A DNA stretch of 64,000 bases, taken from positions 10,195 through 74,194 of the forward strand of contig CAJUSU010000004.1 in NCBI GenBank assembly GCA_910589185.1, given 5' to 3'. This document shows, one piece after another, positions 27,071 to 28,316 of this stretch. The first letter of the stretch is position 1. Every line of letters begins with the position of its first letter. The stretch comes from an uncultured Clostridia bacterium (GTDB taxonomy: Bacteria; Bacillota; Clostridia; TANB77; CAG-508). The notes under the pieces are model-generated. The model made no database searches, was not told the origin of the DNA, and was given only the letters and a program-made list of their open reading frames with translations. A program made the position numbers and the translations under genes.

Positions 27071-28316
27071 ATGAAACAAAAAAATAAAAAATACAACAGG
27101 TATAACTTTAGTAGCATTAGTAGTAACAATAGTAGTATTATTAATCTTAGCAGGAATCACTATCATGTATACCATGGGGGAAAATAGTATATTCAAAAAG
27201 GCACAAGAAGCTAAAGATAAGACAGATCAAGCGATAAAAAATGAACAAGAATACTTTAATAATTTAGATAATATGGTTAATCAATACATTGGTGGAAATA
27301 GCAGTGAAGGTTCAACAGAAACTAAAACAGAATATACAGACCGTAATGGAGATAAAGCGCCTATTCCTAGCGGGTTTTATGTAGTGGGAGATAGTAAGAT
27401 AAATCCAGAGGATAAAAATACAGTAAGAGATGGGCTTGTTATATCTGATGAGAAAGATGATGATTTAGATAATAGTAAACATGGAAATCAATTTGTATGG
27501 ATACCAGTAGAAGATTATAGCAAATTTCATTTGATTGAAGGATATTATAAAGGAAGTTTAGACACTAAACTAAGCGAAGATTCGAACCCATCTCGAGAAG
27601 CAGGCGATACTGCGACAGCGGGGTCACCTGGAAAACCAAATAACTCTAATAGCGTAGCAGGAACTGCTGAAAGCATGGAGATGTATAAAAGTGTAAAAGA
27701 AAATGGAGGTTTCTACATTGCCCGTTTTGAAGCGGGTATAGCAGGGACTACAGTTTCTACAACTACTGAAGATATTAATAAACAAACGCAGGATGGAACG
27801 GTAAAGCCAGTAAGCAAAAAAGGAGTAGGAGTATGGAATTGGATACCTTGGGGAGGAACAACCGTAGTAGAAGCATCCGATAATTTAGTTGGAAATGATA
27901 AGGCTAATGGAGCTGTAAAAGTTGCTAGAAGTATGTATCCAACAAGTGATACACATCATAAAGTAACAAGTACACTATGTTATGGAGTACAATGGGATGC
28001 AACATTAAATTTTATTGATTCTAAGTATATAGGTGGAACAGCAACAGGATATGTAAAAGATAGTACGGATAAAGGAAATTATGCAGGAAATATAGCTACG
28101 ACTGGAAGTAATACTGCATACCAGCAAAAACACATCTATGATATGGCAGGAAATGTTTATGAATGGACTATGGAGGCCTATAATACAGATTACAGAGTAG
28201 TCCGTGGAGGCGATTACCATAACGATGGGAATTTTAATCCATCTTCTTACCGTTATAACTACAAGCCAGAGGGGACAAATACCTACTATGGGTTTCGAGT
28301 AGCATTATACTTGTAG
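27071..28316 (+). CDS. Prepilin-leader (type IV pilin-like) protein with a C-terminal FGE-sulfatase/SUMF1-like domain; the N-terminus is frameshifted in a poly-A tract (possible pseudogene or phase-variable gene)
   Basis: ATG 27071 with RBS AAAGGAGGA reads MKQKNKK... then terminates after 38 codons. The +1 frame reads ..NTTGITLVALVVTIVVLLILAGITIMY (class III signal/pilin helix) into the long ORF 27165-28316. The C-terminus has FGE-family motifs YDMAGNVYEWT, RVVRGG and GFRVAL. Confidence 0.6.

Follow-up and report, generated by a model that had tools for sequence, protein, structure and literature searches.

Among the described systems closest to the gene considered here are the modular type IV pilins. 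Of these, PilB and PilC of Streptococcus sanguinis, which bear a vWA and a lectin module respectively, are, like the product of our gene, built from a class III-type leader and a hydrophobic helix fused to a binding module. The gene occupies positions 27071 to 28316 of a 64,000-nt stretch from an uncultured Clostridia bacterium (contig CAJUSU010000004.1); we refer to this whole stretch as the window, or 64-kb window, and coordinates without a locus label are positions in it. As with the modular pilins, cognate pilus machinery is present in the genome. The window protein differs from them in having neither Glu5 nor Phe or Met at +1, in an N_methyl match below threshold, and in that its cleavage and incorporation are putative; its AlphaFold2 model also differs, with only two helices and a linker ahead of a lectin-fold domain. 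Raynaud et al. (2021; PMC8179133) already list the N_methyl plus SUMF-domain architecture (IPR012902-IPR005532) among modular pilins, with eight proteins in their Dataset S1. The initial annotation of this gene, which had called a pilin with a formylglycine-generating enzyme (FGE)-fold domain unusual, gives way on that point.

A second likeness is to the variable proteins of diversity-generating retroelements (DGRs). In TaqVP (5vf4), TvpA (2y3c) and Mtd (1yu0), as in the window protein, a hypervariable segment lies at the C terminus between conserved scaffold residues. Seven loci homologous to the window gene are true DGR targets, and one of them, L015, has Avd and reverse transcriptase (labels of the form L001 denote database contigs or genomic stretches, and those of the form P0001 proteins). 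The window copy differs in that no template repeat, reverse transcriptase or Avd was found in the scanned 64-kb window, and in the absence of strain variation from its variable region (VR). We know of no pilin-type leader, such as the window protein has, in TvpA, TaqVP or Mtd. From SUMF1 and SUMF2 the window protein differs in its single cysteine, C303, and in being extracytoplasmic by design.

Phase variation inside signal-peptide coding regions occurs in Neisseria, at the poly-G tract of pilC and the CTCTT repeats of opa. As in those genes, a slippage-prone tract whose length sets the frame lies here between the start codon and the mature surface protein, and the genes form a multi-copy family of surface adhesins (putative ones in our case). 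The window tract differs in being a short A7/A6 run in a low-GC Firmicute, with (AG)n or (AC)n in sister genes. Gut Bacteroides diversify type V pilus adhesins by DGR (bioRxiv 10.1101/2024.11.15.621889), a likeness in that a DGR acts on the adhesive component of a pilus in gut bacteria; the window case differs in pilus type, with a type IV-like leader, and in phylum. That preprint makes no mention of type IV pili, Firmicutes, Clostridia or frameshifts. Our searches of the open-access and bioRxiv literature returned no paper linking type IV pilins with formylglycine, and none that connected DGRs either to repeat-tract phase variation or to the type IV pili of Clostridia; nor did we find there any description of a type IV pilin-type leader combined with a DGR-target domain and leader repeat switching.

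The result links three well-studied subjects, modular type IV pilins, DGR-diversified lectin-fold binders and repeat-tract phase variation, which had not been joined in the literature searched, and it does so in a large, multi-copy and entirely uncharacterised family from uncultured gut Clostridia. We consider it probable, with real room left for other explanations, that the gene encodes a modular pilin-type adhesin of the DGR-target type, turned OFF here through homopolymer slippage, and that the disruption is a contingency-type switch and not a pseudogene in decay. The gene would specify, in order, a short Lys-rich leader ending in Gly, a hydrophobic helix and another helix after it, a disordered linker and, last, a C-type-lectin/FGE-fold domain of 330 residues. 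With A7 in place of A6, the start codon is out of frame with helix and body, the OFF state. The intact protein would be processed by the prepilin peptidase of the pilus cluster and displayed on the pilus, or anchored in the manner of a pilus subunit, and its hypervariable C-terminal surface would bind ligand; that switching at the window tract is reversible, and its rate, we infer. If family members are pilus-displayed adhesins, these bacteria could alter what they bind through DGR and whether each copy is produced through slippage in the leader, and would thereby offer a Gram-positive parallel to the variable surface systems that Neisseria and Bacteroides have.

Two alleles at the leader tract

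The gene begins, as read from the sequence, with a Shine-Dalgarno-like aaggagg at 27053..27059 (+), 11 nt 5' of the ATG at 27071 and identical across all allele contigs and the syntenic locus L032. The open reading frame (ORF) that this ATG opens, MKQKNKKYNRYNF...GGK (27071..27187, +), comprises 38 codons and a stop at 27185-27187, and the true leader is limited to its first codons. In the +1 frame, a stop at 27072-27074 is followed by no ATG, GTG or TTG until the ATG at 27165; this frame encodes NKKIKNTTG-ITLVALVVTIVVLLILAGITIMY and runs through to the stop at 28314-28316. This layout is as first annotated, namely a strong ribosome-binding site and ATG leading into a 38-codon dead end, with a +1 frame that has no start of its own before the body. 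In this frame, 27099..27170 (+) encodes Gly(-1), whose codon is 27099-27101, followed by ITLVALVVTIVVLLILAGITIMY, the hydrophobic helix at the N terminus. The largest ORF that can be called from the OFF allele, 27165..28316 (+), yields 383 aa (P0121), equivalent to residues 32-414 of the intact protein. Alignment with L001-L003 places the switch position in the A7-T-A6 tract at 27078..27091 (+), where A7 (27078-27084) is followed by T (27085) and A6 (27086-27091); ON alleles have A6 in place of the A7 run.

The prediction that removal of one A would give a single precursor is borne out by an allele found in nature. A database search returned P0001, a protein of 414 aa that starts MKQKIKNTTG and is essentially identical to the repaired window protein. 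It is encoded on three metagenome contigs (L001-L003) with the same synteny, between an AMP-binding ligase gene and rpsB, and in their leader region the sole difference from the window is A6 in place of A7. Both allele states are thus observed directly. The ON allele (A6-T-A6, 414 aa) is present on L001-L003 and L008, and the OFF allele (A7-T-A6) in the window and on L004-L007, L009 and L010; at least 23 contigs in all carry the exact 383-aa product P0121. Among the latter are a contig from SPAdes with 68x coverage and the NCBI metagenome-assembled genome (MAG) GCA_948580155.1, and A7-T-A6 is present in all four P0121 contigs whose DNA was read. A single accession series, ERZ146509xx to ERZ146510xx, covers the samples of both ON and OFF contigs. 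As at phase-variable loci, tract length moves the body into frame (A6) or out of it (A7), and it is polymorphic among otherwise near-identical strains.

One-base indels in A runs are a classic artefact, and a homopolymer error had been one of the options first put forward for this locus. We regard an error of sequencing or assembly as effectively refuted, with barely any probability left to it. At least 23 independent contigs, from different samples and various assemblers, have the A7-T-A6 tract and the 383-aa product exactly as in the window, which makes A7 a real segregating allele. Comparison of the window with L001 over 19 kb (99.49% identity, 91 substitutions) gave two indels, an in-frame 6-nt difference at 21875-21880 and the tract A itself; since no other 1-nt indel is present across the 19 kb, the window assembly is not error-prone at homopolymers.

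The distribution of tract states among haplotypes bears on how the alleles arose. All four combinations of tract state with residue 91 exist: OFF with R (P0121), ON with R (P0125), ON with S (P0001) and OFF with S (P0122). A haplotype table of ten contigs and the window reveals mosaic haplotypes at the locus. L009 has every flanking single-nucleotide polymorphism (SNP) as in the ON contig L001, from 25855 to 27629, yet carries A7, and L008 is ON with window-type SNPs downstream of the tract. Because the locus is mosaic, recombination could also distribute the tract state. Recurrent slippage at the A7/A6 tract is suggested, not proven, by what amounts to one apparent homoplasy of tract state (L009 against L001) at a recombinogenic locus with a short A7 tract.

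The direction of the change can be read from L032, the syntenic locus of a related lineage, with flanks 87-96% identical to the window. Here the gene is ON and in frame, starting MKQKLKNSTG, with the first A run interrupted; promoter, leader and helix are as in the window, and the gene body is only ~37% identical in protein. Since L032 is in frame, the ON frame is ancestral and A7 derived. Over the alignment of L032:14-3913 with window 25094-29016, promoter, leader and helix are ~87% identical and the body is replaced; we read this as a cassette replacement that has occurred, with breakpoints near window 27286 and 28336. A further boundary appears in the comparison with L001, in which 89 substitution sites fall within window 19264-27629 and none over the next 6.8 kb (27630-34452). 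This pattern suggests that the edge of a recent recombination or sweep lies within the gene, near 27629.

A pilin-type leader on a DGR-target fold

The globular domain occupies 27324..28313 (+), residues 85-414, and near its end lies a hypervariable segment, equivalent to the VR of DGR targets, at 28179..28289 (+; ~residues 370-406), made up mostly of NNY codons. The FGE/SUMF1-family assignment first given to this domain stands as a matter of family, with Pfam FGE-sulfatase (PF03781) reaching 38.3 bits (cut-off 23.3) over residues 329-411 once the frame is repaired, and fails as a matter of function. Catalytic FGE has a pair of copper-binding cysteines in its C-terminal subdomain. The 414-aa window protein has one cysteine, C303, and neither residues 365-414 nor the stretch that aligns with the FGE active site contains any; a single cysteine makes the catalytic pair impossible. 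We rejected an FGE enzyme on this ground, and also because the nearest folds are those of non-enzymatic DGR variable proteins.

The AlphaFold model, built from a 72-sequence alignment (predicted local distance difference test score 86.9, predicted template-modelling score 0.79), has helices at 13-35 and 40-73, a disordered linker and a compact domain at 85-414. In fold comparison the domain scored 16.3 against the DGR variable protein TaqVP, 15.0 against PvdO, 14.4 against SUMF2, 14.3 against the DGR variable protein TvpA, about 13 against EgtB, 12.7 against Mtd and 12.5 against PorK. According to the predicted model, then, the domain is the ligand-binding fold of DGR variable proteins, and like DGR targets it combines a C-type-lectin/FGE-type fold with a variable surface at the C terminus.

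The DGR cassettes at homologues are directly visible. At seven homologous loci (L015, L020, L055, L067, L069, L072 and L076) the last 112-145 nt of the gene are repeated 0.3-2.4 kb downstream at 81-90% identity, and the mismatches fall at adenines of the downstream copy in 22/26, 17/18, 18/19, 10/13, 15/16, 17/20 and 15/17 cases. The closest of the seven, and the one checked for further genes, is L015, whose product P0025 is 61% identical to the window protein and whose cassette consists of the target gene, an ORF with MutS_I alone, bAvd, a reverse transcriptase and a template repeat. The MutS_I ORF (within L015:4529-6503) encodes 112 aa of MutS domain I and nothing else, and sits between the target gene and the bAvd/reverse transcriptase/template-repeat block. 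Further contigs of the MAGs concerned (L063 and L083) hold second copies that the template repeats match as well, with 19/20 and 31/37 mismatches at adenines, so remote DGR targeting occurs. Among the closest relatives of the window protein, residues 367-409 are hypervariable, with a mean column entropy of 1.87 bits against 0.70-0.78 elsewhere in the domain, and by eye the variable columns of the alignment coincide with AAY codons of the L015 template repeat. Template repeats of other species were uninformative when set against the window variable segment, with only ~64% identity and mismatches that were not adenine-specific.

At the other end of the protein, the ON allele reads MKQKIKNTTG-ITLVALVVTIVVLLILAGITIMY, a short basic leader and Gly(-1) followed by a hydrophobic segment of ~20 residues, as in pilins; in the window this arrangement is present only after frame repair. 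The family profile matches the N-terminal domain of a Geobacter pilin (9egp) with an E value of 0.0087. Cognate machinery, in the form of a prepilin peptidase, an assembly ATPase and a platform protein, is encoded in the same genome, in the separate pilus cluster that had been noted at the outset (48393..57732, +; Pfam matches to T2SSE twice, T2SSF, A24_N_bact and, at 20.8 bits, N_methyl). This cluster comprises a PilM/N-like gene, a candidate pilin (51249-51710, +) that starts MRNQKNERG-ITLVALVVTIVVLLILAGITIMY and has the 20.8-bit N_methyl match, a prepilin peptidase (A24_N_bact; 51670-52614, +), pilin-like ORFs at 52627-53028 and 53038-53475 (+), PilB (T2SSE; 53543-55189, +), PilT (T2SSE; 55205-56341, +) and PilC (T2SSF; 56371-57732, +).

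The 24 residues from Gly-1 onward (Gly-1 and 23 helix residues) are identical in the pilin-leader gene and the cluster pilin, where they begin at 51273. The DNA of this shared segment has 14 synonymous and no non-synonymous differences, which points to selection on the peptide; on the same count of synonymous differences we rejected recent gene conversion between the two helices of the window. A link between the pilin-leader gene and the pilus system is plausible on these grounds. The cluster is itself non-canonical: its candidate pilins at 51249 and 53038 begin G-ITL with Ala or Ser at +5, without Glu5, and an acidic +5 is found among its pilin candidates only in ORF 52627 (KG-FTMQD). In Pfam, the only match of the cluster peptidase is to the N-terminal domain of A24, and no confident matches came from NCBIfam.

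Leader disruption across the family

The gene is not the orphan it had been taken for. Of 8,000 candidates scored, 6,551 database proteins match at E <= 0.001; the family forms 339 clusters at 50% identity with E <= 1e-30, and membership was confirmed for at least 569 stretches in GTDB species genomes. The 80 listed loci are nearly all from uncultured Clostridia, Clostridium or Lachnospiraceae MAGs, with mouse, chicken, rabbit and human gut among the sources, and genomes hold multiple copies (at least six in MGBC162590). Nearly all full-length members start with a Lys/Arg/Asn-rich leader, the sequence G-ITL(V/I)ALV(V/I)TI(V/I)VLLILAG and then GxNGI..KA.

Disruption of the leader is common in this family. 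In 54 genomic copies the canonical helix shares its frame with a long body. An in-frame start is missing from 12 of these (22%); in each of the 12, the basic leader, with its ATG and ribosome-binding site, lies in a different frame, and a body of 311-431 codons is retained. Likewise, of the protein-database representatives, 212 could be assigned to a full-length or a truncated class and 22 to neither; 30 of the 212 start within the helix or shortly after it. Gene callers thereby truncate at least 14% of the protein-database cluster representatives and 22% of the genomic copies, and because out-of-frame copies are truncated in this way, annotation misses the leader.

Several of the disrupted leaders contain dinucleotide repeats. 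Genomic OFF copies have (GA)12-13 in L084 and (CA)10-11 in L087, and L101, which is 70% identical to the window protein, is OFF with (AC)10 in its leader. In an L084-like sister subfamily, single 90%-identity clusters (members of those of P0144 and P0151) hold ON alleles reading ...VREI.., ...V(RE)3V.. and ...V(RE)4V.. together with many truncated products. The DNA of this subfamily, at one conserved locus upstream of rpsJ, has (AG)n with n = 6, 7, 9 or 10, in both frame offsets. The polymorphism in repeat length is observed; the (AG)n subfamily is a textbook case of repeat-tract phase variation in a leader-coding region. Its occurrence in close relatives makes the contingency reading of the window A7/A6 tract reasonable. 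Near-identical relatives of L084, sought for a count of (GA)n, yielded a best match of only 74% identity; a scan of Joint Genome Institute (JGI) metagenomes for the leader with a variable gap gave zero matches, and the contig of P0018 was uninformative, with the gene at the contig edge. Family genes lie directly upstream of ribosomal-protein genes both in the window (rpsB, 28466) and in the (AG)n subfamily (rpsJ, L090-L099, gene start near 601).

Several observations weigh against a switchable, pilus-type, DGR-type adhesin. At the tract, A7 is short for a hypermutable run and only two states, A6 and A7, have been seen; the locus recombines, and the L009 homoplasy could be a short conversion tract; and the OFF majority (about at least 26 contigs against 4 ON) would equally fit a neutrally spreading loss-of-function allele. 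At the N terminus, the mature protein would begin with Ile at +1 and have Ala at +5, where the pilin consensus has Phe or Met and Glu; Pfam N_methyl (PF07963/IPR012902) reaches 13.2 bits against a cut-off of 21.2; and in the AlphaFold2 model the helix leads to the lectin-fold domain with no pilin beta-sheet module in between. The leader first described as a textbook prepilin leader with a pilin helix is therefore not textbook at +1 and +5. The protein would work like a modular pilin; given the missing Glu5, the Ile at +1, the sub-threshold Pfam match and the absent beta-sheet module, we would not class it as an established type IV pilin. At the C terminus, low-stringency blastn of 27951-28330 against the 64-kb window found no template repeat, and no Pfam match to a reverse transcriptase (RVT_1) or bAvd was obtained in 46 of the 67 ORFs of at least 100 aa and in 62300-63999.

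A DGR acting beside the window gene is rejected, since no template repeat, reverse transcriptase or Avd is present in the scanned parts of the window. There are, moreover, zero SNPs from 27630 to 28355 among 11 allele sequences (ten contigs and the window). With no template or reverse transcriptase within 64 kb and a variable segment that is static among strains, the window copy is not hypermutated now; it would be best described as a DGR-type variable protein that is not currently diversified.

The same tract observations could be explained if one A was inserted on a single occasion and put a dispensable adhesin gene out of action, and drift and recombination then spread the allele, with no elevated or reversible switching. 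We hold this plain-pseudogene account to be unlikely, while granting it a substantial residual probability. It gains from OFF being the majority allele, from the two tract states and the shortness of A7, and from the mosaic haplotypes, which show that recombination can move the tract state between backgrounds; clearly degraded family copies also exist, such as the leaderless L102. It sits poorly with the intact 383-codon body on all ~30 contigs of a 30% GC genome, in which random ORFs are short, and with the full-length bodies of all 12 out-of-frame family members. Disruptions are concentrated in the leader, sister genes evolved length-polymorphic dinucleotide repeats at the same leader position, and L009 is OFF with the flanks of an ON contig. 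For the A7 tract, the family-wide evidence favours contingency-type switching over a pseudogene. Our reading of the disruption as a contingency switch is based on two things, that both states segregate in the same species and that leader tracts across the family are slippage-prone, with A5-A7 runs, (AG)n and (AC)n. The leaderless copy, P0021 (L102:300-420), is a paralogue in MAG MGBC162590; AT-rich intergenic DNA leads straight into its ORF, which starts YDITLVALV, and the copy may be dead or a silent cassette.

Extra-C leaders of homologues, and further observations in the window

A distinct class of out-of-frame leader raises the possibility that the frame is recoded in some family members. 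At six independent loci the zero-frame leader ends in AAA, AAT or ACT and is followed by one extra C and then GGN-ATN-ACN (L013:2919-2997; L058:2940-3003; L066:2973-3003; L068:2991-3015; L088:2985-3027; and L071, with three tandem copies at 2937-3003, 4363-4423 and 5784-5844). The extra C before GGN makes the zero-frame junction codon CGG. L013, L058 and L068 have no homopolymer in the stretch where a frame change could restore the protein. A C directly precedes the Gly codon in 8 of the 11 listed OFF loci, and in 6 of 8 independent non-repeat OFF lineages against 2 of 42 ON loci (Fisher p = 4.6e-5 for 6/8 against 2/42). The three L071 copies are 76-85% identical in DNA, and junction and intact bodies are kept in 3/3; one copy has an in-frame 6-nt indel in its leader. 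When the extra base is skipped, the result is a canonical leader with ...K-G or ...N-G at its end.

Of the 17,986 codons in window ORFs, 3 are CGG, and the three sites (9763+31, 15189+16 and 21891+11 codons) are all in doubtful 5' extensions that overlap the preceding gene; the codon may be effectively unused in this 30% GC genome. The extra-C pattern suggests a conserved +1 ribosomal frameshift at a hungry codon, which it fits better than random decay. The conserved C before the Gly codon is a testable candidate for a new bacterial +1 recoding site of this kind.

Extended to the window, this idea would have the A7 allele still expressed. Ribosomes that have translated MKQKNKKYN would stall at AGG (27097-27099), which overlaps the Gly codon, and slip +1 to GGT to give MKQKNKKYN-G-ITLV...; in a variant, RNA polymerase would slip on A7, and the frameshift would tune expression without abolishing it. 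Taken together, we judge these two forms of recoding at A7 very unlikely. What speaks for them is the extra-C class itself, with CGG exactly at the junction of six loci and C before Gly so enriched in OFF lineages, the retention of junction and bodies in diverged tandem copies, the rarity of CGG, and the canonical leaders that a base skip restores. The junction codon of the window is AGG, however, which occurs 57 times in window ORFs (3.2 per 1000 codons) and so is not especially hungry. An ordinary A6 ON allele exists in the same species, which makes A7 a derived mutation and not a conserved design, and no stimulatory element was identified at the window junction. Distinctly unlikely, in our estimate, is a broader scheme of three layers of variation on one pilus-type adhesin scaffold, in which DGR hypermutation and leader repeat switching would be joined by +1 frameshifting at CGG in the distinct extra-C class, and the A7 allele, with its AGG, would stand for low expression and not a null.

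As first annotated, the gene lies between a ligase gene and rpsB: an AMP-binding ligase gene is upstream on the minus strand, and rpsB is downstream. A promoter and terminator scan gave no result above chance; a TTGACA-17-TTATAA pair at 26937-26965 was seen by eye only. Elsewhere in the window, a protein with Big_2 and DUF6273 domains (163-1224) adjoins an agr-like module composed of AgrB (1529-2155), a GHKL histidine kinase (2503-3858, minus strand) and a LytTR response regulator (3812-4558, minus strand). A Replic_Relax domain protein (36973-37920) and an IrrE/M78 peptidase (43401-43919) lie between the pilin-leader gene and the pilus cluster, and their genes may be mobile-element remnants.

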